Notes: generated from the letters alone by a model not told the origin. Numbered from the stretch's first letter, positions 4,905 through 52,006 are shown. The stretch is DNA of 64,000 nt from Bacteroidota bacterium (GCA_039819065.1 JBCBSS010000018.1:1-64000); one strand, 5' to 3'. Program-made: numbers and translations.

Positions 4905-5120
4905 AATTGATAAGCGTTTTTGATTTTTATGGTGAATAGAATCAAATTTAAAAAATAATGTCATTGGCTGACAGTAATTTTCAAATTATAAAAGAGCCTT
5001 TTGGAGGTGCTCTGAATCTCATAGTTTTTTTCATATTTCTGATTGGTTACATTTGTATTTACGAGCAACTGTGACAAAAGTTTTAGATTGGCTCAAAAAA
5101 TTAGCAAAAATTTTAAAAAC

Positions 5121-5921
5121 ATGTCCTACATAGGTAAAAACATCAAAAAAATAAGAACTGTCAAAAAGCTTAGCCAGGCTCAATTCGCTGAAATCTTCAG
5201 CTTGGCAAGACCTAGTGTAGGGGCTTATGAGGAAGCAAGGGCAGAGCCTAAAGTGGATACGATCATACAGATTGCTAACTATTTTGGCCTTTCTGTAGAT
5301 GTGCTTCTCAATAAGGAGCTTTCGGTCAATGACCTTTACAGCTTCAATTTATTTAATCAAAAGCTAACACAGGCCCATGAACAACTGATGCCATTGAAAA
5401 AAGCGCCTGTGAAAAGCGGAGGCATTGGCTTGGTTCAGATTAAGAATTACCTCGAGTACATAGTGAATTATCAGAACAGAGATTTTATCTCGAATCTGCC
5501 CTCAATAGATTTACCGGTGATATTCAGAGGAAATGCTCGAGCTTTCGAACTGAATGGTAGTGAAATGGAGTACTATCAAAACGGGCTGCATCATGGAGAC
5601 TTTTTACTTTGTAGCAAATCCGATTTGACCAAAGTCAATAAGATCAGAGAGGGTGGGGTTTACGTTATTATATCTGATGAGCGTATCATAGCGCGCCGTG
5701 TTAAATCTGTAGATAAGAAAACATTGATTTTATCATCTGATGACCCTAACTACAGTTTGCTGGAAATTCCACTAAAAAGTATATTGGAGTTGTGGGAAGT
5801 AAAAGGAGCATATAGTACTTATCTTAACCCGCCTAAAACCATTGATGAAAAAGTGCTTGTATTGGAGAAGCAGTTGAGAGAGCTTTCCGAAAAAGTATCA
5901 CAATTAGCCAGTAAAAAGTAA
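5121..5921 (+). CDS. XRE-family HTH + S24 (LexA/UmuD-like) peptidase-domain transcriptional regulator
   Basis: N-terminal HTH_XRE (LSQAQFAEIFSLARPSVGAYEEARAEPKVDTIIQIANYFGLSVDVLL). C-terminal S24-like beta domain with GDFLLCSK aligning to LexA GDLLAVHK, a Ser candidate in NGSEM and a Lys candidate in IARRVKSV. ATG at 5121; the ORF-track start at 5043 is TTG. Confidence 0.75.
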   Translation: MSYIGKNIKKIRTVKKLSQAQFAEIFSLARPSVGAYEEARAEPKVDTIIQIANYFGLSVDVLLNKELSVNDLYSFNLFNQKLTQAHEQLMPLKKAPVKSGGIGLVQIKNYLEYIVNYQNRDFISNLPSIDLPVIFRGNARAFELNGSEMEYYQNGLHHGDFLLCSKSDLTKVNKIREGGVYVIISDERIIARRVKSVDKKTLILSSDDPNYSLLEIPLKSILELWEVKGAYSTYLNPPKTIDEKVLVLEKQLRELSEKVSQLASKK

Positions 5922-6631
5922 TGCAAGATATCATAGAGTTGTTCGAACAGAGTATCGAAGATACCTGTATGTCGCGGGCTGAAAAACGTACAATCAAGCA
6001 GATAGTGCAAGAAAAAGGCCTGGATAGAGACCAGAGGAATTTCCTGCGTAGCAAGATATTCGATATCGCCTCAGCAAGGGCTACAGACGAAAACTATTCC
6101 CAGGTCTTACAGTGGTTAGAAGAAGCCAATAAGGCCCTTATACCAAAAGACCATCAGCATGTACAAACCGAATCATATTTCAGTCCGGGCGATGAATGTT
6201 TGAAGACCATCAACGGCCATTTGAGATCAGCCGTTTCTTCTATTAAGATTTGTGTCTTTACCATCAGTGACAACCGTATTTCAGATACTATAGTTGAGAG
6301 CTACCGAAGAGGTATAGACATCAAGATCATCACCGATGACGACAAGGTGTTTGACAAGGGTTCAGATATAGACTACTTGGTAAGAAAGGGCATTCCCATC
6401 AAGGTCGATGACACCAGGTATCACATGCACCATAAGTTCTTGTTGATCGATAAACAAAAGTTAATAACCGGTAGTTATAATTGGACGAGAAGTGCAGCCG
6501 AGTATAATCATGAGAATATCATTGTGACGGACGACCAAAGTGCCGTGAATGAGTACGTCAAAGAGTTCGATAGGCTTTGGAAAACCATGTGTGCTTACGA
6601 TCAGCTAGGCGGTAAAAGTTGTCCAACTTAA
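5921..6631 (+). CDS. PLD-family (single HKD motif) nuclease, Nuc/Zucchini/BfiI-like
   Basis: HKD signature YHMHHKFLLIDKQKLITGSYNWTRSAAEYNHEN (HxKx4D…GSxN); a single copy implies a dimeric active site; extra N-terminal helical region of about 100 aa; start overlaps the upstream stop as TAATG. Confidence 0.8.
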   Translation: MQDIIELFEQSIEDTCMSRAEKRTIKQIVQEKGLDRDQRNFLRSKIFDIASARATDENYSQVLQWLEEANKALIPKDHQHVQTESYFSPGDECLKTINGHLRSAVSSIKICVFTISDNRISDTIVESYRRGIDIKIITDDDKVFDKGSDIDYLVRKGIPIKVDDTRYHMHHKFLLIDKQKLITGSYNWTRSAAEYNHENIIVTDDQSAVNEYVKEFDRLWKTMCAYDQLGGKSCPT

Positions 6632-6642
6632 AAAGCGATTTA

Positions 6643-6948
6643 ATGATTCTTTACAACGTTACGATTGGAGTAGATCAAGACATTGAGGGTGAGTGGCTGC
6701 AATGGATAAAAGCCAAGCATATTCCGGATGTAATGGAAACGGGTATGTTCATAGAATATAAGATATTCAAGGTACTCAGTCAGGAAAATGAAGGCAGTGT
6801 TTCTTACTCCATTCAATACTTTGCGGAAACGGTAGATAATGTCGTCAAATACCTGGACGAGTATGCCCCGCCTATCATTGAAGAGCATCGGAAACGCTAC
6901 AGGGAGAAACATGTGGCTTTCAGGACACTTCTGGAAGAGGTTTCGTAA
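6643..6948 (+). CDS. small conserved hypothetical, DUF4286-like
   Basis: 101-aa protein starting MILYNVTIGVD…, which is the N-terminal pattern I recall for DUF4286; start re-set to the ATG at 6643 (ORF-track start 6619 is TTG). Identification is from memory, not a search. Confidence 0.45.
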   Translation: MILYNVTIGVDQDIEGEWLQWIKAKHIPDVMETGMFIEYKIFKVLSQENEGSVSYSIQYFAETVDNVVKYLDEYAPPIIEEHRKRYREKHVAFRTLLEEVS

Positions 6949-6968
6949 TGTGCTCATAATATTAGCAT

Positions 6969-6987
6969 AGCCTGTTGAATACAGGCT
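6969..6987 (+). terminator. short stem-loop AGCCTGT-tgaat-ACAGGCT between the DUF4286-like gene and the helicase gene (possible weak terminator/attenuator)
   Basis: 7-bp perfect inverted repeat 20 nt after the stop codon; no strong downstream T-run. Confidence 0.3.
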
Positions 6988-7086
6988 TATAATTGGCTTA
7001 ACAATTCTCTAAACGCCTCGGCATTCTGCTAACCACATTTACTATCTTTCCGGTTGGCGACCATTAATGTACAGCAACAAGGCACG

Positions 7087-9843
7087 ATGAGCATACCTAA
7101 TTACATTAAATTCCTCAAGAGTTGTTATCAGTCTGACAACCGGCAATTATCACTTTCTAGCATCTACCATGACAAGGTAGAGAATCGGTATTTTTTCTCT
7201 GGTAAGGAGGAGTTGCTTAACGAGCACCTCCCTTACGTTGGTATTGAAAATAAATATGCCGAAGAGGTAAATAAGAACTTGAGCCTTTTTGCCAGAGAGA
7301 AACAACTTTTTCACTTTTCATTCTTTCTGCTGGTTCGAAGTCAGGGTTTTCAAAAACGAGTTCAGAACCTGTGTGTACCACTTTTCTTGCACCCAGCAGA
7401 AATATTTGAAAAGGATGGGCAGCACTTTGTACAGATCGACTTCGCAAGGAGAATCATAAACTACAATGTGCTGGCTTCGTTACGAGATGACCAGACACTT
7501 TCCACATCTGATTTAGTGGAGCAATTGCACAAAGAACTACCACCTGGAATTGTAGATTTTCAACGAGTAGGTAATATTGTAAGGGTGTTGAAAAAGCACA
7601 TATCTTCTATAGATACAGAAAGTATGTTGCTCTATCCTGACCTCACCAGTGAACAGGCAATCAAAACTAAACTCAAGGCATACAAGGCTAATCAATCTCC
7701 AACTATACTACCTGGCTCTGCACTTGGCGTAGTCAAAAAATCTACCAATACACGGGGCATTGTTAATGGACTCACGGCTTTAAGCGGGGCTTCAAGCTAT
7801 CCCGCCGCATTTAGAAAGCTCTTTTTGGATGATGATACAAGTATCGCGAGTAAAGAAAAGATAGGTATGGTACCTTCTATTCTGAGTAAAGCGCAAGAGC
7901 AGATTTTAGAGTCTGTGGCCGAAAATCATCAGACGCTGATTATAGGGCCGCCGGGTACGGGTAAATCATATACCATCGCTTCGCTCGCTGTAGAACAAAT
8001 GAGCAAAGGAAATACCGTGCTCATTGCTGCTCGAACCGATCAGGCGCTTGATGTAATTGCTGACAAAATAGAGAATCAACTAGGCCTAACGAACCTGGTT
8101 GTAAAGGCTAGCCAGAAAGACTCAGTTAAACGATTAAGCCATCGCATCGCGGTGCTATTGTCAGGTATCAAAGGTGATTTATGGAAGATGGCCCATAGAA
8201 GGTCAGATCTTTTAAGGAGCATCGAAAAGACCAAATCGAAGATAGCTTCGCTTGAAAAGGCTTTTAAACAACAGGTAGAAGATGAGATAGATTGGGGAGG
8301 ACATTTCGTTGATTATAAGAAAGATCCGGGTTTTTTCAAGAGCCTGAAAAAGCATTACATCAATTTCAGAAATTCCAGGCGAGAGCCCCATTGGGTGATA
8401 GCCAATGAGCTTTTTGAACTGTTCGAAACCCAACAACGCGAAATTAAAGAATACATCAGCTTAACTTTAGAACTTCAGGTTGATAGGATTTTAAAAGAGC
8501 ATCGAAAAGACTTAACCAATTTTCAAAGTGCCATAAAGGCCAGAACAGGACTTAAGGCAGAGGCACTTTTTGAGCAAGTAAATTTCAAGGCAGTATTGAG
8601 CATACTTCCTATATGGTTGGTCAATATGTCAGACATTCATGATGTATTTCCACTCAACGCTGAGTTGTTTGATGTGGCTATAGTCGATGAAGCCACTCAA
8701 TGTGATATAGCCAGTGCACTCCCCATGCTTTATAGGGGCAAAAAGCATGTCATTGCTGGGGATCCTCAACAGCTCAGGCATATTTCATTTCTTTCCAGAA
8801 GCAGGCAAGCACAACTGGCGAAGTCATTTGAAATATCAGCGCTGGATACCGCCAAAATGGATTTCAGAGAGAATAGCTTACTCGACTTTTTCAATAAAGG
8901 TATCGCTGACCAAGCACAGGTGGCTTTTCTCGATGAGCATTTTCGAAGCCGACCTAGAATTATTCATTTCAGTAATCAACAATTCTATGAGGGAGCCCTC
9001 AAGGTGATGACCCAAAGGCCTGGAATTGAGCATTTGCCCAACGCCCTTGAGATTATTGATGCAAAAGGGAAGCGGTTGAAAAGTGGATATAATAAAAGAG
9101 AAGCAGAAGAGGTCATTACCGGAATAGAAGGTTTGATTAATGCTCAAGCCGATTTTAAGGCTGATATGATCACCTCGATTGGTGTTATCTCACCATTTCG
9201 TGATCAGGTCGATTACATAGCCAGGCAGATAGAGTCTACGTTCTCATTGACTGATATTCGCAGGCACAATATAATGATAGGCACGGCTTTCGCATTCCAA
9301 GGTGAAGAACGAGATATTGTATTTTTGTCATTTGCTGTTGACGGGCAAACGCACAGCTCCGCCTTTGTTCATTTGAATAAGCCAGATGTATTTAACGTAG
9401 CCATAACCAGGGCCAAATTCAAACAGGTTTTGATCAAGTCTATCGATAACAAAGAATTAGATTCCAATAGTTTATTCAGGAAATACCTTGATTTAGCAGG
9501 GAATGCGGATGCTTTCTACCGTGAATCGCATCAATATGCTCAACCTGATAGCAAAGATGACTTTCTCAAGGAGGTTATCGAAGAAATTGAAGAAGCTGGA
9601 ATTGAGCATTGGGTGTCCTATCATATAGGAGGCCTTGAAGTGGACGTTATGATGCATCATAAAAATGCTGCGTTTGCACTTGACCTTATTGGTTACCCCG
9701 GTGAATACCAGGATGCCTTTTCGATCGACCGCTATAAAATGCTTCAAAGAGTGGGAATTGATGTTTTTCCATTACCCTATACACTTTGGGTCAATTCAAG
9801 GACAAAATGTATGGAAAGCATTAAAGATCTTATTAAGTACTGA
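7087..9843 (+). CDS. SF1B Upf1/DNA2-like helicase with an uncharacterised N-terminal domain of about 290 aa and a C-terminal DUF559/Vsr-like (restriction-endonuclease-fold) domain
   Basis: Walker A LIIGPPGTGKSYT, motif II IVDEATQCD, motif III AGDPQQL, and motifs V/VI (FQGEERDIVFLS, VAITRAKF). C-terminal about 110 aa (…WVSYHIGGLEVDVMMHHKNAAFALDLIGYPGE…) resembles DUF559/Vsr-like endonuclease modules. First ATG at 7087; the ORF-track start 7054 is TTG. Confidence 0.8.
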   Translation: MSIPNYIKFLKSCYQSDNRQLSLSSIYHDKVENRYFFSGKEELLNEHLPYVGIENKYAEEVNKNLSLFAREKQLFHFSFFLLVRSQGFQKRVQNLCVPLFLHPAEIFEKDGQHFVQIDFARRIINYNVLASLRDDQTLSTSDLVEQLHKELPPGIVDFQRVGNIVRVLKKHISSIDTESMLLYPDLTSEQAIKTKLKAYKANQSPTILPGSALGVVKKSTNTRGIVNGLTALSGASSYPAAFRKLFLDDDTSIASKEKIGMVPSILSKAQEQILESVAENHQTLIIGPPGTGKSYTIASLAVEQMSKGNTVLIAARTDQALDVIADKIENQLGLTNLVVKASQKDSVKRLSHRIAVLLSGIKGDLWKMAHRRSDLLRSIEKTKSKIASLEKAFKQQVEDEIDWGGHFVDYKKDPGFFKSLKKHYINFRNSRREPHWVIANELFELFETQQREIKEYISLTLELQVDRILKEHRKDLTNFQSAIKARTGLKAEALFEQVNFKAVLSILPIWLVNMSDIHDVFPLNAELFDVAIVDEATQCDIASALPMLYRGKKHVIAGDPQQLRHISFLSRSRQAQLAKSFEISALDTAKMDFRENSLLDFFNKGIADQAQVAFLDEHFRSRPRIIHFSNQQFYEGALKVMTQRPGIEHLPNALEIIDAKGKRLKSGYNKREAEEVITGIEGLINAQADFKADMITSIGVISPFRDQVDYIARQIESTFSLTDIRRHNIMIGTAFAFQGEERDIVFLSFAVDGQTHSSAFVHLNKPDVFNVAITRAKFKQVLIKSIDNKELDSNSLFRKYLDLAGNADAFYRESHQYAQPDSKDDFLKEVIEEIEEAGIEHWVSYHIGGLEVDVMMHHKNAAFALDLIGYPGEYQDAFSIDRYKMLQRVGIDVFPLPYTLWVNSRTKCMESIKDLIKY

Positions 9844-9931: not shown

Positions 9932-10315
9932 ATGGAGAAAATTGCACTAGAAGGAACTGAAGAACGTCCTTCTGTTATACTAGATAAGACTACCGGTAAG
10001 TTTGAGATAGCTGGGAAATCTTATATGGAGGATGTAGCGACCTTCTATCACGAAATTATAGACTGGCTCGAGGATTATGGCAAGGAACCCAATGCGCTGA
10101 CCGTTTTCGAGTTTCGACTGGACTATAGGAACACTTCATCATCCAAGATGATCATCGATGTCATTGAGATTTTGCATAACATCAACAAATCTGGTCATGA
10201 TGTTTTAGTCAAATGGTGCTATTATGCAGATGATGAGGACATTAAACAAATAGGTAGAGACTTTAGTGAGATATACCAGTTACCTTTTGTTTTTGACTGT
10301 ACCGATTCATTTTAG
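9932..10315 (+). CDS. DUF1987 (SiaC-like) domain protein
   Basis: about 127-aa protein (…FEFRLDYRNTSSSKMIIDVIEIL…KWCYYADDEDI…) matching the DUF1987/SiaC partner-switch target family; ATG at 9932 (ORF-track start 9923 is TTG). Confidence 0.6.
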   Translation: MEKIALEGTEERPSVILDKTTGKFEIAGKSYMEDVATFYHEIIDWLEDYGKEPNALTVFEFRLDYRNTSSSKMIIDVIEILHNINKSGHDVLVKWCYYADDEDIKQIGRDFSEIYQLPFVFDCTDSF

Positions 10316-44190: not shown

Positions 44191-47004
44191 TTACTTGCTA
44201 AGGTATAGGTTTCGCTCAGAGTAAATTTTCAAGAAATAATCGTCCATCAAATCATCTATGAAGTAGATAGCTTCCCCGGTTGATTTCATCTCAGGCCCAA
44301 GCTCCTTGTTCACATTAGGAAACTTATTAAATGAGAATACCGGCTCTTTAATTGCATATCCTTTTTTCTTAGGATTGAACTGGAAGTCTTTCACTTTGTT
44401 TTCTCCCAACATGACCTTGGTGGCGTAGTTCACATAAGGCTCGTCATAAGCTTTACATATGAAAGGTACCGTTCGAGAAGCACGAGGATTGGCCTCTATG
44501 ATGTATACCTTATCATCTTTAATTGCAAATTGTATATTGATCAACCCAACTGTTTTGAGCGCCAGTGCGATTTTCTTAGTATACGTCTCCATTTGCTGGA
44601 CTATAAAATCACCTAGGTTGAATGGAGGTAAAACCGCATAAGAATCACCTGAGTGGATTCCGGCAGGCTCAATGTGCTGCATGATACCTATAATGTAAAC
44701 CTCTTCTCCATCACAAATGGCGTCAGCCTCTGCTTCTATGGCACCGTCAAGGAAGTGGTCGAGTAGAATTTTATTCCCTGGAATTTCTTTCATCACTTTC
44801 ACGATGTGCGATTCCAACTCTTCCTCGTTGATCACAATCTTCATGTTCTGACCGCCCAGTACGTAAGAAGGCCTTACGAGCAGCGGAAATCCGATTTCTT
44901 TGGAAAGATCTAATGCATGGTTGGCATCTTCTGCCACTCCAAATTCAGGATACGGGATATCATTTTCTTTAAGTAGTGTAGAAAAACTTCCCCTATCTTC
45001 AGCGAGGTCAAGAGAATCGAAAGAGGTGCCGATGATTTTCACACCATATCTTTCGAGCTTTTCAGCAAGCTTCAGAGCAGTCTGACCACCCAGCTGTACG
45101 ATAACACCTTCTGGTTTTTCCATCTCAATGATCTCATAGATGTGCTCCCAGAATACTGGCTCGAAGTATAGCTTGTCAGCCACGTCGAAATCAGTAGAAA
45201 CGGTTTCCGGGTTACAATTGATCATGATCGCTTCATAGCCACATTCTTTGGCTGCCAGAATACCGTGTACACAAGAGTAATCGAATTCTATTCCTTGGCC
45301 GATTCGGTTAGGGCCAGAACCTAATACGATGATCTTCTTTCTATCAGAGACGGTAGACTCGTTCTCCTCTCCAAATGTAGAATAGTAATAAGGCGTTTGT
45401 GCCTCAAACTCTGCCGCACAAGTATCAACCAGTTTGTAGACGCGGTTAATACCCATCGACTTGCGCTTGTTATAGACTTCGCTTTCAAGGCAACCCAGAA
45501 GATGACCGAGCTGTCTATCTGCATAGCCCTTTCTCTTGGCTGTCAAAAGCAACTCACTAGGGATATTTTCTAATGTATATTGCTCTATTTGCTTTTCTAG
45601 ATTGAGCAGGTCTTCAATTTGCATTAAGAACCACTTGTCAATTTTAGAAAGCTTTTGAATAGTTTTAAAGGCTACTCCAAGCTTGAAAGCATCATATATA
45701 TGGAAAAGCCTGTCCCAACTCGGGTGCTCTAAGCTTTCTATGATCTCGTCTCTTTCAGTTAATTCCTTGCCATCTGCACCGAGGCCATTTCTTTTGATCT
45801 CCAGTGACTGACAAGCTTTCTGCAGTGCTTCCTGGAAAGTACGTCCGATGCCCATTACCTCACCAACGGCTTTCATTTGGAGACCTAACTTGACATCAGC
45901 GCCTTGGAATTTATCGAAGTTCCATCGGGGAATCTTCACGATCACATAGTCGATAGCTGGCTCAAAGTAGGCAGAAGTAGTGCCTGTAATGGCGTTTTTT
46001 AGCTCATCAAGGTTATAACCGATGGCAAGCTTGGCTGCAATCTTAGCAATCGGATACCCTGTGGCTTTAGAAGCTAGTGCTGATGATCGCGAAACCCTTG
46101 GGTTGATTTCTATACCGATGATATCATCTGTTTCGGGATCGACCGCAAACTGTACGTTACATCCACCGGCGAACTGTCCGATGGCATTCATCATTCTGAT
46201 AGCCATGTCCCTCATTTCCTGATACACGGTATCGGGAAGCGTCATGGCCGGAGCCACTGTGATAGAATCACCAGTGTGAACTCCCATTGGATCAAAGTTC
46301 TCAATCGAACAGATAATGATTACGTTACCCAGATTGTCTCGTAGCAACTCTAGTTCGTATTCCTTCCAACCCAGAATGCTTTGTTCTACCAATACCTCAT
46401 GGATAGGCGACATGTGCAGACCACGAGTTAGCGCTTTCTCAAAGTCTTCAGCGCTGTTTACGAATCCTCCACCAGTACCGCCGAGTGTGAAAGAAGGTCT
46501 GATAACAAGAGGGTAACCAATTTCCTGGGCAATTTCTTTACCCTGTAGAAATGATGTGGCCGTTTTTCCTTTACATACACCAATGCCTATTTCGTGCATC
46601 AAGAGCCTGAATTTCTCGCGATCTTCAGTAGTCTCAATAGCCGTAATATCTACTCCGATAATTTTCACCCCATAGTGTTTCCAGATACCGGCATTCTCAC
46701 AATCTATAGCGAGATTAAGTGCCGTCTGACCTCCCATGGTAGGCAGTACGGCGTCAATGTTATGCTTCTCAAGGATTTCCCTGATATACTTTTTTTCAAG
46801 TGGTTTGAGATAAATGTGGTCTGCAACCACATTGTCCGTCATAATGGTAGCAGGATTGGAGTTGATTAGGATAACCTCGATCCCTTCTTCTCTTAGTGAT
46901 CTGGACGCTTGGGATCCTGAATAATCAAATTCGCAGGCTTGTCCGATCACTATAGGGCCGCTACCTATTATGAGTACTGATCGTATACTTCTATCTCTTG
47001 GCAT
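44191..47004 (-). CDS. carB: carbamoyl-phosphate synthase large subunit (937 aa, lacking the C-terminal MGS-like allosteric domain)
   Basis: two ATP-grasp halves (…[30 protein letters not shown]… and …[21 protein letters not shown]…). Confidence 0.97.
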
Positions 47005-47183
47005 TGAAAGGTGTTATAAAGTGGTGAAGTTTGCTTAAGTATAAATTGGCGCTAAATTATAGCAAATGAACTATAATCAAAATGTAATAAGCTATGGTTT
47101 CTGGTTTTCATGAAATAATAGCGCCTGGTGCTTATTTTTGTCTAGTAACACTGAACCCCAAGAAAAACCATCCTTTGTGAATT

Positions 47184-48146
47184 ATGAATAGAATTGACCG
47201 TCTTTCTGCCATAGTGATTCAGTTGCAAAGCAAGAAGGTAGTGACAGCGAAGGAAATTGCTGATCGTTTTGATATTAGTCTGAGGACGGTTTATAGGGAT
47301 ATCAGAGCGCTGGAAGAAGCTGGTGTTCCGATAGGAGCGGAGGCAGGTGTCGGTTATTTTATCATGGAAGGGTACCATCTACCACCAGTAGTTTTTACCC
47401 GAGATGAGGCCAGCGCACTTTTGTTGAGCGCCAAGTTGATCGATAAACATGCCGATCAATCGGTTAGAAACCACGTTGACAATGCTTTTTTTAAAATTAA
47501 GGCTGTACTCAAAGGTATTGATAAGGAGCACCTTGAAAGTCTTGAGGAACAGGTGGAGGTATTGAATTTACCCGAAGCTGACACGGATCTTTTCCCCAAT
47601 CATTTTTTGACGGACATTCAAAATGCCTTGGTACAGAAAAAGGTATTGAAATTCGATTACTATTCTAACTACAATGATGAATTCAATAGTCGAGAAGCCG
47701 AACCAATGGGCCTTTTATTCTACAGCTCGCACTGGCACTTGATAGCTTATTGCCGGCTTAGGCAGGGTTTGAGAGACTTTAGAATTGACAGAATTACTAA
47801 GCTAACCATATCTGAGGAACAATTTGAAGGGTCACAAAAAGAGGCCTTTCAGCAATTCAAACGTCAATTAATGGTTGGCTCTGATCTTGAGATTGTCAAA
47901 GTACGCTTCACACCAGAAGTAGCACGATATATAGGTGAGAAGCGGTATTTCTATGGGTTTGTTGAAGAGACTAGGACGGATGACTATATAGAAATGACAT
48001 TTATGGTGTCCATGCTCAAAGACTTTGGCCGTTGGTTGTTGCCCTTCGGAAGTACAGTTGAAATCATCTCACCCCTTGCCCTAAAGGATGCCATGCGAGA
48101 ATTAGTCGAAGATTTACTCCATTACATCACTGAAAAGGTCACTTAA
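47184..48146 (+). CDS. YafY-type transcriptional regulator (HTH + WYL + WCX domains)
   Basis: N-terminal HTH (…KEIADRFDISLRTVYRDIRALEEAGVPI…), a central WYL-like domain whose best match to the WYL signature is FYSSHWHLIAYCRL, and a C-terminal extension. Confidence 0.85.
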   Translation: MNRIDRLSAIVIQLQSKKVVTAKEIADRFDISLRTVYRDIRALEEAGVPIGAEAGVGYFIMEGYHLPPVVFTRDEASALLLSAKLIDKHADQSVRNHVDNAFFKIKAVLKGIDKEHLESLEEQVEVLNLPEADTDLFPNHFLTDIQNALVQKKVLKFDYYSNYNDEFNSREAEPMGLLFYSSHWHLIAYCRLRQGLRDFRIDRITKLTISEEQFEGSQKEAFQQFKRQLMVGSDLEIVKVRFTPEVARYIGEKRYFYGFVEETRTDDYIEMTFMVSMLKDFGRWLLPFGSTVEIISPLALKDAMRELVEDLLHYITEKVT

Positions 48147-48411
48147 TTTCAATTTTTTTCTTTTTCAAAAAACCTACTGACATAAGGTTGTCACTAGCTG
48201 CTCTGTTCTTTACATCAAAAAAAGATGTTCAACCTTTATTAGAACCCATCAACAAACTCGGTGTCTGGATCAGAAAGGTTGTCATCAAGGCTTGCGCAGC
48301 ACAAAAAATGTGAGTTCACTGATGTGAATGACCATTTTGAGTGCAAGCGTAACGCAGATGACGGGCTTTATGAACAGACACTAATTAATCATTATTTCAA
48401 CCATAATTATT

Positions 48412-48762
48412 ATGTCAATGGGAAACACCGTATTCGCTCAGAGCAAGAACGTTGAGCACAAAGCAGAAAAACATCCCGTACTGGAGATGGTGGTCTACAA
48501 AATCAAATCCGATGTAGTGCCGCGCTATCAGGAAATTCTCGAACAAGCCAGAGCAGAGGTAAGCAAGTTTGAAGGATTCATCGGCTACCGCACTTTTCGA
48601 TCATCCAAGGATAAAGGCGTATTCATGGACTTGGTAGAATGGGAGAGCCTCGATTTAGCCATGAAAGCCGCTAACCAGCTTGAATCGAAAGAAGAATTCA
48701 AGCCATTTCTGTCAGCTTTCGAAAGCATTACCATCATGGAGCATTTTAATTTTTACAAGTAA
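48412..48762 (+). CDS. ABM (antibiotic-biosynthesis-monooxygenase)-like small alpha+beta protein (tentative)
   Basis: about 100-aa ferredoxin-like ORF; the true start may be the ATG near 48487 (MVVYKIK…). Confidence 0.4.
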   Translation: MSMGNTVFAQSKNVEHKAEKHPVLEMVVYKIKSDVVPRYQEILEQARAEVSKFEGFIGYRTFRSSKDKGVFMDLVEWESLDLAMKAANQLESKEEFKPFLSAFESITIMEHFNFYK

Positions 48763-48789
48763 ACATCAATAACTTTAATTAACCGCAAT

Positions 48790-49398
48790 ATGGAAACTAT
48801 GGAAAAACTTGATTTGGTCAAGTCATTTAAAGAGTATTATAAGGCTAAGCAAATACCCGAATTAGTAGACCTGGCACCAGCTTACTATTTGACCATCAGT
48901 GGTGTAAGCGCACCAGAAGATGAGTTATTTGTAAAGAGCATCGAGTCTATTTATCCTCTGGCTTATGGTATTAAGAAACTAGCTAAAGATCAGGGCAGGG
49001 ATTTCGGCGTGCCGAAAATGGAAGGACAATGGTGGGTGGAAGGGGAAGTTCCATTTGAAGAAACACCTAGAGATCAATGGCATTGGAGAATCATGATCAT
49101 GATGCCTGATTTCGTAGATATTAAGATGGTAGATAAGGCTAGAGAAATAGTGGAGAAGAAGAAAAACCCCGAAAGGCTAGCAGATGTGACATTCGAAAAG
49201 ATACATGAAGGCAAAAGTGTCCAAGCCCTGCACATTGGTTCTTATGAAGAAGAAAAACCTACTCTTGAAAAGCTATTCAAAATGATTGCTGACAAGGGCT
49301 TGAGCATTAACGGATATCATCATGAGATTTATTTGTCTGATCCGAGGAAAACGCCTGAAGAAAGGCTCAAGACCATTATTAGATATCCTGTGAAATAG
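48790..49398 (+). CDS. GyrI-like small-molecule-binding domain protein
   Basis: 202 aa; duplicated beta-alpha-beta-beta halves with …EGQWWVEGE… and …HEIYLSDPRKTP… motifs typical of GyrI/SbmC-like proteins. Confidence 0.7.
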   Translation: METMEKLDLVKSFKEYYKAKQIPELVDLAPAYYLTISGVSAPEDELFVKSIESIYPLAYGIKKLAKDQGRDFGVPKMEGQWWVEGEVPFEETPRDQWHWRIMIMMPDFVDIKMVDKAREIVEKKKNPERLADVTFEKIHEGKSVQALHIGSYEEEKPTLEKLFKMIADKGLSINGYHHEIYLSDPRKTPEERLKTIIRYPVK

Positions 49399-49405
49399 AC
49401 AACTA

Positions 49406-50497
49406 ATGGCAGAACTTTTAAAGAACCAATTCTTTCAACCCGCTTTTCACCAAGCACTTGCGAAAGCGATTAACCGAGTACATCCCAATTTCAGTGAGGA
49501 TGAATTTATGAGCAAGGTCTACAATGACAGATGGGACGGTATGGAACTCAAGGAACGTATGAAGCATACCGCACTGACGTTGCGACAGTTACTGCCTGAA
49601 GACTATCTGAAAGCATTGGACGTACTCAAGAAGGTCTGCCATCATTTCCAGGGTTTTGACGGCATGGTATTTCCTGATTTTGTAGAACAATTTGGTCTGG
49701 ATTACCCGGAGGTATCATTGGATGCGCTGGAGTTATTTACACAATACTCCAGTAGTGAGTTTGCCATTAGGCCTTTCATTGTGAGGTATGAAGACCTGGC
49801 CATGGGACGCATGTTTCGATGGTCGACTGATGAGAATTACCATATAAGAAGATTGTCAAGCGAAGGTTGTCGTCCCAGGTTGCCGTGGGCGATGGCCCTT
49901 CCTAAATTCAAAAAGGATCCTTCTCTCATTCTACCTATTCTGGAAAACATGAAGGCCGACCCTGAAGAATATGTTAGAAAGAGTGTTGCTAACAACCTGA
50001 ACGACATTACTAAGGACAACAAGGAAATCGTGTTAGAGACCCTTGAGCATTGGAATGCTGATAAGGCAAAAAGTACGCAATGGATCATAAAACACGCTTT
50101 AAGGGGACTGCTAAAGGCAGGAGATAAGCGAGCACTTGCGATCCTTGGATTCAAGAAAGCAAATGTCGAGATAGAACATTTGATGCTTGATCGGGACTCT
50201 ATATCCATGGGAGAAGAACTAAATTTTTCTTTCAAGCTGACCAACCAAGGAAAAAGCAAAAAGAAGCTGATGGTCGATTATGTTATTCATTTTGTGAAAT
50301 CTAATGGTAGCACGGCTCCGAAGGTTTTTAAGCTAACCAATATCGATTTAAGTGCTGAAGATACCGTTGAGTTAGCCAAGAAACATGAAATTAAACCCAT
50401 TACCACCAGAAAATATTATGCCGGGGTGCATCGACTAGAAATCCAAGTGAATGGTCAAATGTACGGTGGTGTAAATTTTGAACTAGTGTTGAGTTAA
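49406..50497 (+). CDS. DNA alkylation repair enzyme family (AlkC/AlkD-like HEAT-like-repeat DNA glycosylase) with a C-terminal beta-rich (Ig-like) extension
   Basis: HEAT-like repeats (…IRRLSSEGCRPRLPWAMALPKFKKDP…EYVRKSVANNLNDITKDN…) plus about 120 aa of C-terminal beta domain. Confidence 0.75.
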   Translation: MAELLKNQFFQPAFHQALAKAINRVHPNFSEDEFMSKVYNDRWDGMELKERMKHTALTLRQLLPEDYLKALDVLKKVCHHFQGFDGMVFPDFVEQFGLDYPEVSLDALELFTQYSSSEFAIRPFIVRYEDLAMGRMFRWSTDENYHIRRLSSEGCRPRLPWAMALPKFKKDPSLILPILENMKADPEEYVRKSVANNLNDITKDNKEIVLETLEHWNADKAKSTQWIIKHALRGLLKAGDKRALAILGFKKANVEIEHLMLDRDSISMGEELNFSFKLTNQGKSKKKLMVDYVIHFVKSNGSTAPKVFKLTNIDLSAEDTVELAKKHEIKPITTRKYYAGVHRLEIQVNGQMYGGVNFELVLS

Positions 50498-50660
50498 GTG
50501 TATTATGTCGCATAAGTTGCCGTTATTTTTGTCCAAGACGAGGCAAAAAATATGAGCATAGCTGTAGCTACGTAATTATTTTTTAACGAAGTATTGGGTG
50601 AAAAGAACAACACTTGGTGTGACTAAAATATGCTTAATTTAACACGAGAATTATAAGACT

Positions 50661-50939
50661 ATGAAAAAGGTCAGTTTTCATCATTCCAAGCTTTCAAAGC
50701 TCAAAAATATTGGGAAAACGATAGAAAAAAGACTCAATGAGATTGGAGTTTATTCGAAAGAAGACCTCGAAACCATTGGGCCAGTCAAGGCATATCGTTT
50801 GATCAAGGAGAATTACCCTGACAAGACCATTCCGGTTTGTTATTACCTATATTCCTTCGAGGGAGCACTCTTGAATCGGCACTGGGATGATATTCCTGAA
50901 GAGACCAAGGAAGAGTTAAAGAAAGCGGCTGGTGTTTGA
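50661..50939 (+). CDS. TfoX C-terminal-domain-only protein (HhH-like DNA-binding)
   Basis: 92 aa; …LKNIGKTIEKRLNEIGVYSKEDLETIGPVKAYRLIK… HhH-like. Confidence 0.6.
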   Translation: MKKVSFHHSKLSKLKNIGKTIEKRLNEIGVYSKEDLETIGPVKAYRLIKENYPDKTIPVCYYLYSFEGALLNRHWDDIPEETKEELKKAAGV

Positions 50940-50950
50940 GGAGATGAACT

Positions 50951-52006
50951 TCAGAATAAACTCAGATTGCCACCACGCCTGAACTTGGTAATATCCAGAG
51001 GGGGCACTTTTCTGCCAGACATGTATTTTTTCTTCGCCATTCTAAAAAGAGAGGCTATGCTATTGGCGTAATTGCCTTCTCCACTTTGTCGCCTGCCCCA
51101 TTCACTATCATTGACCTGTCCTCCGTGCATATCACATATTTGATTCCAGACTTTGTTGAATCGGTCTGGAAAGTTCTTTTTCAGCCAATCTTCGAACATA
51201 GGGCCGATAGCACCATTCAACCGCACTACCGTGTATCCTGCGCTTAATGCCCCGTGGTCAGCAGCAGCTTTGATTACATTGGGAATTTCATGATGATTCA
51301 ATCCCGGGATGATGGGAGCATTCATAATACTCACCGGAACACCCTTTTTAGAAAGTGCTTCGATCGCCTTCAATTTTCGGATGGCACTAGCCGTTCTAGG
51401 CTCCATGATCGACCTAAGCTTTTCGTCCAGTGTGGTAATGGAAAAGTGAATGTGTACCAAATTATCACTGGCTAGATCCGTCAATAAGTCGATATCACGA
51501 AGTACTAGCACATTTTTGGTGATCATGGAAACCGGATGCCGATATCGAACCATAACCTCTAAGACACCCCTCGTCAATTTAAACCGTCTTTCGAGTGGCT
51601 GATAGCAATCCGTGTTTCCAGACACCATTATAGGCATGGGTTTCCAGCTCTTGTGAAGGATCTGTTGTTCCAATGTTCTAGGTGCGTTCTCCTTAACAAT
51701 GATCTTTCTTTCAAAGTCAAGACCTGCGCTGAACCCCCAATACTCATGCACATTTCGGGCGTAACAATAAATGCAACCGTGCTCACAACCCTGGTATGGA
51801 TTCAAAGAGTAAACCATGCCCAGGTCGGGGCTATCTACTTTGTTCACGATCTTTTTTGGGTGCTCGAAGAATATCTCCGTCTTCGGAGCTTCCAAGTGTT
51901 TTTCCTCGTCTAACCCTTCTATATGATCAGTGACATATTCCTGGCTCAGGAACTTGTTACGCGTATTTACCTGAGCCCCTCGCCCTTTTAGATAGCCATC
52001 TTGCAT
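50951..52006 (-). CDS. radical-SAM DNA repair lyase (spore-photoproduct-lyase / SplB-like)
   Basis: CEHGCIYCYA (CxxxCxxC) radical-SAM cluster motif; about 350 aa. Confidence 0.8.
   Translation of the reverse strand: MQDGYLKGRGAQVNTRNKFLSQEYVTDHIEGLDEEKHLEAPKTEIFFEHPKKIVNKVDSPDLGMVYSLNPYQGCEHGCIYCYARNVHEYWGFSAGLDFERKIIVKENAPRTLEQQILHKSWKPMPIMVSGNTDCYQPLERRFKLTRGVLEVMVRYRHPVSMITKNVLVLRDIDLLTDLASDNLVHIHFSITTLDEKLRSIMEPRTASAIRKLKAIEALSKKGVPVSIMNAPIIPGLNHHEIPNVIKAAADHGALSAGYTVVRLNGAIGPMFEDWLKKNFPDRFNKVWNQICDMHGGQVNDSEWGRRQSGEGNYANSIASLFRMAKKKYMSGRKVPPLDITKFRRGGNLSLF

Follow-up and report, generated by a model that had tools for sequence, protein, structure and literature searches.

A candidate WYL-family regulon with a putative palindromic operator upstream of ABM, GyrI-like and AlkC genes in a Bacteroidota bacterium

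Genes of the locus and their products

A gene group headed by a WYL-family transcription factor was analysed in a stretch of 64,000 nucleotides (nt), hereafter the window, from a metagenome-assembled genome (MAG) of a Bacteroidota bacterium (GCA_039819065.1 JBCBSS010000018.1:1-64000) whose nearest named relatives, at ~60% protein identity, are Fulvivirgaceae and Cyclobacteriaceae (Cytophagales). The listing of open reading frames (ORFs) places four + strand ORFs at 47184-50497, exactly the interval in which an earlier model-generated reading of the DNA (the sequence-only reading) had seen a candidate inducible defence against bulky DNA-alkylating genotoxins. They encode a WYL-family transcription factor (ORF1, 47184-48146, 320 amino acids, NCBI name 'YafY family protein'), an ABM-fold protein, i.e. 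a ferredoxin-like dimeric alpha+beta barrel (ORF2, 48412-48762, 116 amino acids), a GyrI-like protein (ORF3, 48790-49398, 202 amino acids) and an AlkC-like DNA glycosylase (ORF4, 49406-50497, 363 amino acids). In this order the ORFs are separated by 265, 27 and 7 nt, and by the two short gaps the ABM, GyrI-like and AlkC genes (48412-50497) form a tight operon, in which no internal terminator was seen on the sense strand. The four domain calls of the sequence-only reading (WYL, ABM-like, GyrI-like, AlkC-like) were all right, as a hidden Markov model check gave Pfam assignments above the gathering threshold for every ORF, while an NCBIfam search of the four added nothing specific.

ORF1 shows the winged helix-turn-helix (wHTH)-WYL-WCX architecture, with Pfam HTH_11 at residues 6-58 (3e-17), WYL at 141-208 (3.5e-21) and WCX at 238-312 (1.3e-13). 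Its closest solved relatives are PafBC, PafB/PafC, DriD, CapW and BrxR, the similarity to PafBC being modest (E = 1e-16). In the phmmer alignment, R34 and R38 of the window protein fall on PafB R46 and R50, which read two G:C pairs of a GTC triplet, and both are invariant in 22 Bacteroidota orthologues and in Bacillaceae regulators of only 23-25% overall identity. Furthermore, to bind single-stranded DNA (ssDNA), PafBC requires PafB R211/R214, R181, R204, R208 and Y196. All five arginines have a counterpart in the window protein, where R170, R193, R197, R200 and R203 align with PafB R181, R204, R208, R211 and R214. They are invariant across the 22 Bacteroidota orthologues, and four of the five (R170, R197, R200 and R203) remain so once the Bacillaceae regulators are included.

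The GyrI-like protein (Pfam GyrI-like, 4.8e-13) aligns end-to-end with Lin2189 (PDB 3B49/5X5M) at E = 1e-36 and 38% identity. Lin2189 and other cyclopropanoid cyclopropyl hydrolases (CCHs) from non-producers hydrolyse yatakemycin or CC-1065 and protect cells, and their subfamily is defined, in Lin2189 numbering, by the acidic pair E157/E185 and a cage of Y46, W85, W99, F154 and Y187, plus Y54 and Y58 (PMC5684135). E155 and E179 of the window protein correspond to the acidic pair, these positions being Glu in 23 of 23 and 22 of 23 WYL-linked orthologues respectively. The cage is made of F47, W81, W97, Y152 and Y181, plus Y55 and Y59, so that every position is aromatic and the two swaps relative to Lin2189 (Y46F and F154Y) are conservative; the 23 WYL-linked orthologues keep the pattern save for a few conservative substitutions. 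The catalytic Glu and aromatic cage on which the detoxification idea had been made to depend are both present, and ORF3 is a predicted Lin2189-type CCH. As for the ABM protein, its Pfam match (PF03992; 1.5e-7) scores 31.9 bits against a cut-off of 23.1. A PDB search gave no close solved relative for it; matches to designed PPR proteins were rejected as repeat-summing artefacts, with zero stretches passing.

ORF4 matches Pfam DNA_alkylation at 1.1e-5 (25.6 bits, cut-off 21), and phmmer aligns its residues 10-360 with residues 9-359 of PDB 5VHV_A, the AlkC of Pseudomonas fluorescens (PfAlkC; 5VHV/5VI0), at E = 2.4e-77. E118 (in SSEFAIR), E153 (in SSEGCRPRLPW) and W161 are invariant in an alignment of 21 homologues. 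Of these, E118 and E153 align with Glu121 and Glu156 of PfAlkC, two residues responsible for excising 7-methylguanine (7mG), 3-methyladenine (3mA), 3-methylguanine (3mG), 3-methylcytosine (3mC) and 1-methyladenine (1mA) (review PMC11514114). The HEAT-like-repeat glycosylase domain is encoded at 49406-50152 and is followed, at 50153-50497 including the stop codon, by an Ig-like domain of ~115 amino acids (about residues 250-363). The sequence-only reading had described this C-terminal beta (Ig-like) part as an extension. The Ig-like domain is present as described, but there is nothing unusual about it: since the PfAlkC alignment continues unbroken to residue 360 of 363, it is the canonical domain of AlkC, and a length of ~360 amino acids is common to all of the 120 AlkC homologues listed. 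ORF4 is hence a predicted glycosylase and full-length AlkC orthologue.

A palindromic operator and its promoter geometry

Related loci were collected from two sides, as 80 AlkC loci in species-representative genomes of many phyla and as WYL loci in four named genomes together with 78 metagenomic orthologues at 48-56% identity. When the spacers 3' of the WYL genes were aligned, a near-invariant motif, cTaCTGACATAgGGtTGTCAc, emerged. In the window this putative operator reads TGACATAAGGTTGTCA, lies at 48178-48193 (+) between the WYL and ABM genes, and is the single perfect copy of TGACA-N6-TGTCA in the 64 kb. In the 2.05 Mb of related loci there are 74 exact copies of the core TGACA-N6-TGTCA, where ~2 are expected, and the operator is found -30 to +450 nt from the WYL stop codon in 48 of the 78 orthologous loci. 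Inside the operator, the spacer begins with T-A, 100% conserved at positions 1-2, and has G at position 5 in 98%. The invariance of R34 and R38 from Bacteroidota to Bacillaceae fits the GAC/GTC half-sites that are common to both. A second match in the window, at 6268-6283 (-) with one mismatch, was rejected as chance: it falls within a PLD-like gene of the + strand, no gene follows it on its own strand, and the count of matches with up to two mismatches equals the shuffle expectation.

The sequence downstream of the operator is also constrained. Indeed, 31 of 57 operator instances have TTTG at an identical distance, giving T[T/A]nnTTTG starting 12 nt past TGTC. This we take to be the Bacteroidetes -7 box (TAnnTTTG), in which case the palindrome would sit in the place of the -33 element; no -33 TTTG or -35 element was evident at the proper distance. 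The putative -7 box of the window is GTTCTTTA at 48205-48212 (+), again 12 nt past the TGTC of the operator. In PafBC-dependent promoters the consensus is tGTCgg(N10)tA(N3)T, i.e. TGTC-N12-TAnnnT, and its 5' part is a -26 element. The PafB wHTH binds this element and PafC makes contact with sigma region 4, a mode termed "sigma adaptation" (PMC8635444). The spacing between the right half of the operator and the -10-like box, TGTC-N12, is the same as in these promoters.

In three Bacillaceae loci (L060, L069 and L078) the spacer between the divergent WYL and (ABM-)AlkC genes holds (G)TGACA-N5-TGTCA(C), followed after 12 nt by TATAGT or TATACT. Judged from sequence comparison, this N5 operator is a putative independent replicate of the link between WYL gene, operator and AlkC. 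Since the TGTC-N12 spacing holds for the Bacteroidetes -7 box as it does for TATAGT in Bacillus, a single arrangement appears to have been kept across two promoter dialects.

The operator is doubled, ~54 bp apart, in nine WYL-orthologue loci. In these (L142-L144, L146-L148, L156, L158 and L159) the two starts are 53-55 bp apart, ~five helical turns (4751 and 4805 in L159), with an A-rich tract after the first operator and the -7 box after the second, an arrangement that points to cooperative binding, or to looping, within one sub-clade. A separate observation concerns the WYL-to-cargo spacers of L089/L091 (353-nt spacer), L151/L162 and L141/L165, in which arrays of unrelated direct or inverted repeats, such as CAAACCTTACAGGTTTTC units and GTGAA-rich inverted blocks, are found upstream of the operator.

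Gene order and cargo across genomes

On the AlkC side, a WYL gene adjoins AlkC in 5 of the 80 loci. A Cyclobacteriaceae locus (L002) carries carB in reverse orientation, then WYL, GyrI-like, RibD_C and AlkC, and a Rhodothermaceae locus (L015) reads VOC ... GyrI-like, WYL, MCP, ABM-ABM, AlkC; the other three are the Bacillaceae loci, where WYL is divergent from ABM-AlkC (L060 and L069) or from AlkC (L078). On the WYL side, the order SRPBCC-WYL-GyrI-AlkC is seen in two of the four named genomes, WYL-ABM-GyrI in one and SRPBCC-WYL alone in one. Among the co-directional genes 3' of the 78 metagenomic WYL orthologues, direct matching to window or reference proteins identified Lin2189-type GyrI-like genes in 17 loci, RibD_C in 11, ABM in 5 and AlkC in 3. 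A Pfam scan of 80 previously unlabelled cargo proteins added 17 more GyrI-like proteins and at least 14 VOC (glyoxalase/bleomycin-resistance) proteins, besides AHSA1/SRPBCC, CxxCxxCC, PhnB-like, DinB and others; DUF1801 proteins and an MFS transporter also count among the cargo. ABM orthologues lie directly 3' of the operator and/or 5' of GyrI-like or AlkC genes in L015, L060, L069, L084, L087, L090, L096, L098 and L102. The layout closest to that of the window belongs to L098 (carB in reverse orientation, then WYL, RibD_C, ABM, GyrI, AlkC), and the position next to carB is common to L002, L098 and L131.

The adjacency of WYL and cargo genes is thus beyond chance and recurs, rearranged, in Cytophagales, Rhodothermaceae and Bacillaceae. 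Given that cargo so varied lies 3' of one orthologous regulator, the window represents one configuration of a modular cargo set. The sequence-only reading had proposed a dedicated module, and in this respect it has to give way to a WYL regulon of variable content, with VOC, SRPBCC/AHSA1, RibD_C, DUF1801 and DinB proteins as further cargo.

The exact operator stands directly 5' of AlkC, or of the short operon containing it, in 10 of 78 AlkC loci, most of which have no WYL gene nearby. It lies 6-62 nt upstream of AlkC itself in L027 (Ignavibacteria), L044, L056 (Halothiobacillaceae), L061 (Flavihumibacter), L063 (Aquimarina) and L064, and upstream of DUF1801-AlkC in L045 and L079, of ABM-AlkC in L015 and of GyrI-RibD_C-AlkC in L002. 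Such loci make up 9 of ~30 Bacteroidota-related AlkC loci. The link between these genes and a WYL regulator, as the sequence-only reading had it, therefore receives comparative support: in many genomes the conserved operator accompanies WYL orthologues and precedes AlkC or other cargo genes.

Three loci merit description on their own. In L056, a gammaproteobacterial MAG, the exact TGACA-N6-TGTCA at 9938-9953 is immediately 5' of AlkC, so that the operator-AlkC link reaches beyond the Bacteroidota-related phyla. In L015 (3084-11089) there are two operators, one before VOC-DUF2461-AraC/GyrI-GyrI-WYL and the other before a double-ABM fusion (216 amino acids) and AlkC, with a chemoreceptor gene between the two units; as the first operator precedes a unit containing the WYL gene, autoregulation would be possible. 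In L154 (6035-7366) an IS110-family transposase gene has been inserted between operator and AlkC.

Leader hairpin and surroundings of the locus

Between the putative promoter and the ABM gene lies a long imperfect hairpin of ~120 nt (48260-48382, +), with a minimum free energy of -60 kcal/mol and z = -5.2. Its left arm repeats, at 48275-48284, the 10-mer of the operator right half, AAGGTTGTCA, and the hairpin is unique to the source organism. It may serve in attenuation or mRNA stabilisation, or it may be a neutral palindromic insertion. No Rfam family was found in 46900-51100 at E <= 1. Given that L098 has RibD_C at the corresponding place, the WYL-ABM spacer was considered as a decayed gene; tblastn of all locus proteins against 48147-48500 returned ABM only, and this idea was dropped.

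The surrounding genes include carB, a TfoX_C protein, a PA0069-family radical S-adenosylmethionine (SAM) protein and a LytTR two-component system. The GC content is ~0.40 and the composition flat, hence without an island signature. Within 44-54 kb of the window no biosynthetic genes were found among the ORF and Pfam annotations, so that the locus is not a self-resistance cassette of the ytk/CC-1065 type embedded in a biosynthetic cluster. The stand-alone TfoX_C protein (92 amino acids; 50661-50939, +) is convergent with the PA0069-family radical SAM protein (50951-52006, -), which has an NCBIfam E = 8e-149 and, below threshold, also weakly matches spore photoproduct lyase. The two proteins are DNA-related in flavour; as homologues of the two were found in 0 of 165 related loci, they were rejected as members of the module. 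Far from the locus, an HTH_3 + Peptidase_S24 (CI/LexA-like) protein gene (5043-5921) abuts a PLD-like nuclease-family gene (5921-6631) with one base in common, and a 929-amino-acid ORF with Walker-A helicase-like motifs follows at 7054-9843; this group (5043-9843) may be a mobile-element or defence cassette.

An anti-phage role of the BrxR/CapW type was also considered for the locus. In PADLOC only the WYL regulator had a clear match, and to nothing but generic WYL models; the ABM, GyrI-like and TfoX_C proteins had no match and the AlkC and radical SAM proteins marginal ones only (E = 0.003-0.01). With the cargo lacking PADLOC support and no recognised defence system adjoining the regulator, this role was rejected.

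Discussion

In function the nearest precedent for the locus is SiwR from Mycobacterium smegmatis (PMC10693628). This local WYL protein activates the two DinB-superfamily genes beside it (dinS operon), binds ssDNA and requires the -26 region of the promoter, and its operon is inducible with zeocin, H2O2 or mitomycin C. In both cases a local wHTH-WYL-WCX regulator stands beside a short operon of small detoxification-type proteins. However, the cargo differs (DinB-superfamily proteins in dinS, ABM, CCH-type GyrI-like and AlkC proteins in the window), as do the phylum and the promoter type, the window having a Bacteroidetes -7 box, and the SiwR site is defined by no more than a conserved GGA triplet whereas the window has a full palindrome with GAC/GTC cores. 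With PafBC and DriD the window protein shares domain architecture, the GTC-reading arginine pair and the ssDNA-binding arginines. The TGTC-N12-TAnnnT promoter geometry recalls PafBC of Actinobacteria, and the GAC-N7/8-GTC palindrome recalls DriD of Caulobacter, whose binding site is ATACGAC(N7)GTCGTAT. Nevertheless, PafBC and DriD are global regulators (recA, uvrA, didA and similar genes) while the cargo in the window is local and concerns detoxification and repair; moreover PafBC is a heterodimer on a single half-site, and the window protein is presumably a homodimer on a palindrome of two half-sites.

The enzymes have equally close counterparts. The window AlkC resembles those of P. fluorescens and Bacillus cereus (5VHV, 5VI0) over its full length, in the HEAT-like repeats, the Ig-like domain and the catalytic Glu pair. 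The GyrI-like protein has the Glu pair and aromatic cage of the CCHs of the Lin2189/YtkR7/C10R6 type (PMC5684135) and the full-length resemblance to Lin2189 given above; it differs from them in its two cage swaps and in lying outside a biosynthetic cluster. The yatakemycin self-resistance set (YtkR7 + YtkR2) follows the same two-tier logic of destroying the alkylator and excising the lesions, and pairs the same superfamilies. In that set, however, the glycosylase is of the AlkD type rather than AlkC, and the WYL regulator is a feature of the window.

Taken together, these comparisons lead us to favour, with somewhat more confidence than doubt, a local SiwR/PafBC-like WYL regulator that would drive a modular anti-genotoxin regulon. 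The homodimeric wHTH-WYL-WCX regulator would bind TGACA-N6-TGTCA at 48178-48193, where the ABM/GyrI-like/AlkC promoter would otherwise have its -33 element. It would be made constitutively and be switched on when its WYL domains bind ssDNA from stalled forks or repair gaps, and once activated it would recruit or adapt the housekeeping RNA polymerase in the manner of PafBC, SiwR and DriD. The Lin2189-type GyrI-like enzyme would then hydrolyse or sequester electrophilic DNA-alkylating small molecules before they contact DNA, the ABM protein perhaps also aiding toxin removal, and AlkC would excise replication-blocking cationic alkyl bases (3mA, 3mC, 1mA type), upon which base excision repair would begin. 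The inducible defence under a WYL regulator that the sequence-only reading had proposed is in this way supported by comparative evidence as a matter of control; binding of the operator by the WYL protein, activation over repression, the ssDNA signal, induction of the operon by DNA damage and the real substrates are what we infer.

Several observations weigh against this anti-genotoxin regulon. Where PafB has Y196, the W-Y-L motif Tyr that is needed for ssDNA binding, the window protein has His185, and one WYL regulator senses cyclic di-GMP and not ssDNA (PMC11880434). The -7 box of the window is among the weakest of 56, with G at position 1 and A at position 8, and the leader from promoter to ABM gene measures ~200 nt, with its -60 kcal/mol hairpin, against ~30-90 nt in most orthologous loci; weak box and long hairpin leader together mean that regulation may be altered in the source genome. 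The operator, centred near -32, suits a repressor such as CapW or BrxR as well as an activator. Furthermore, AlkC adjoins WYL in only 3 of 78 close orthologue loci and the operator is present in only 10 (+3) of 78 AlkC loci, which makes AlkC a facultative member of the regulon. Lastly, the substrates on record for AlkC, namely 3mA, 3mC, 1mA and 7mG, are cationic methyl lesions of small size (review PMC11514114), and B. cereus AlkC failed to excise the two bulky adducts tested, those of trioxacarcin (TXNA) and hedamycin (HED). The GyrI-like protein and AlkC may accordingly not share one toxin.

The position of the operator bears most directly on the sign of the regulation. The WYL protein could be a repressor that occludes the promoter, as CapW and BrxR do, and is released by a ligand, the operon being inducible by derepression. 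We regard this as unlikely, though it carries real weight: the operator overlaps the promoter between -24 and -40, the nine loci with two operators ~54 bp apart would permit cooperative binding or looping, and CapW is described in PMC11662680 as an ssDNA-sensing wHTH-WYL-WCX repressor. However, the spacing TGTC-N12 to the -10 box is that of PafBC activator promoters and is kept in both promoter types, with the Bacteroidetes -7 box as with TATAGT of Bacillus, and the promoter has no evident -33 TTTG or -35 element of its own. Moreover, WYL regulators of genotoxic stress are activators while those of phage defence are repressors, as pointed out in the SiwR paper (PMC10693628). As to the signal, a general xenobiotic or small-molecule stress response, in which the WYL domain or a partner would sense a small ligand (toxin or nucleotide second messenger) with AlkC as a passenger, would agree with the small-molecule-binding folds of most cargo (GyrI-like, VOC, SRPBCC, ABM, RibD_C, DUF1801), with the regulator that senses cyclic di-GMP and with the Tyr to His replacement. 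All five ssDNA-binding arginines of PafB are nevertheless kept in the window protein, and operator-linked AlkC recurs in at least five Bacteroidota families, Rhodothermaceae, Ignavibacteria, a gammaproteobacterium and Bacillaceae. A DNA glycosylase as recurrent target of the operator is hard to explain without a DNA-damage theme, and we consider such a ligand response rather improbable.

The nature of the toxin can be weighed in the same manner. A module devoted to bulky alkylators with a cyclopropyl warhead (yatakemycin, CC-1065, duocarmycin class), in which the hydrolase would destroy the drug and AlkC excise the adducts as the non-producer counterpart of YtkR7 + YtkR2, is doubtful in our view. 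The CCH signature of the window protein is complete, non-producer CCHs do protect cells as noted, and in the ytk and CC-1065 clusters a GyrI-like CCH occurs together with a glycosylase of the HEAT-like-repeat type. However, the glycosylases for adducts of the yatakemycin and CC-1065 type are AlkD, YtkR2 and C10R5 and not AlkC, whose specificity is reportedly much narrower, for small lesions. Excision of bulky adducts by AlkC, as put forward in the sequence-only reading, is not borne out by the known substrates of AlkC or by the inactivity of B. cereus AlkC on the two bulky adducts, and with a specificity so narrow the 'bulky' claim is left to the GyrI-like hydrolase by itself. Moreover, GyrI-like and AlkC genes are often under the operator separately, so that one common toxin is not required. 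A merely fortuitous adjacency of four independent housekeeping genes, next to an unrelated terminator-like or repeat palindrome, could point to the 265-nt gap between WYL and ABM and to the unrelated repeats in the intergenic regions of several orthologous loci. We find it hardly credible in view of the 74 motif matches against ~2 expected, their fixed spacing to the -7/-10 box, the occurrence of the motif directly upstream of AlkC and far from any WYL gene, and the recurrence of WYL-ABM-AlkC with a matching operator in Firmicutes.

The anti-genotoxin regulon could extend further. More tentatively, and with the balance slightly unfavourable for a claim of this breadth, TGACA-N5/6-TGTCA and YafY-type WYL regulators may define a LexA- and Ada-independent, ssDNA-triggered anti-genotoxin regulon across Bacteroidota, Rhodothermota, Ignavibacteria, some Proteobacteria and Bacillaceae. 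It would have a toxin-neutralising arm (CCH-type GyrI-like, VOC, SRPBCC, DinB, RibD_C and ABM proteins) and a repair arm (AlkC), and would employ PafBC-style sigma adaptation even on Bacteroidetes -33/-7 promoters.

For DNA-damage responses, WYL regulators have been characterised in Actinobacteria, Caulobacter and Acinetobacter. In the literature, of which our coverage was incomplete so that this is absence of evidence only, we found no WYL-AlkC or WYL-GyrI-like regulon, no TGACA-N6-TGTCA operator, no WYL damage response in Bacteroidota and no report on the regulatory context of AlkC. LexA control is reported for the AlkC-like gene yhaZ of Bacillus subtilis, a point given no weight in this analysis. 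The protein families and the regulator type are all known; new are the operator and the set of cargo genes, as a local WYL regulon. The palindromic operator is newly described here as a putative element, linked by genome comparison to WYL genes and their cargo.

AlkC is thereby placed in a recognisable and directly testable candidate regulon. The operator with its fixed -26 geometry provides a handle for genome-wide mapping of the regulon and for finding genotoxin-neutralising proteins, and it also lets sigma adaptation be probed with a Bacteroidetes sigma factor. Finally, the finding that non-producers pair a predicted cyclopropyl-warhead hydrolase with a glycosylase is relevant to the environmental resistome, both for DNA-alkylating natural products and for the drugs derived from them, such as duocarmycin-type payloads.

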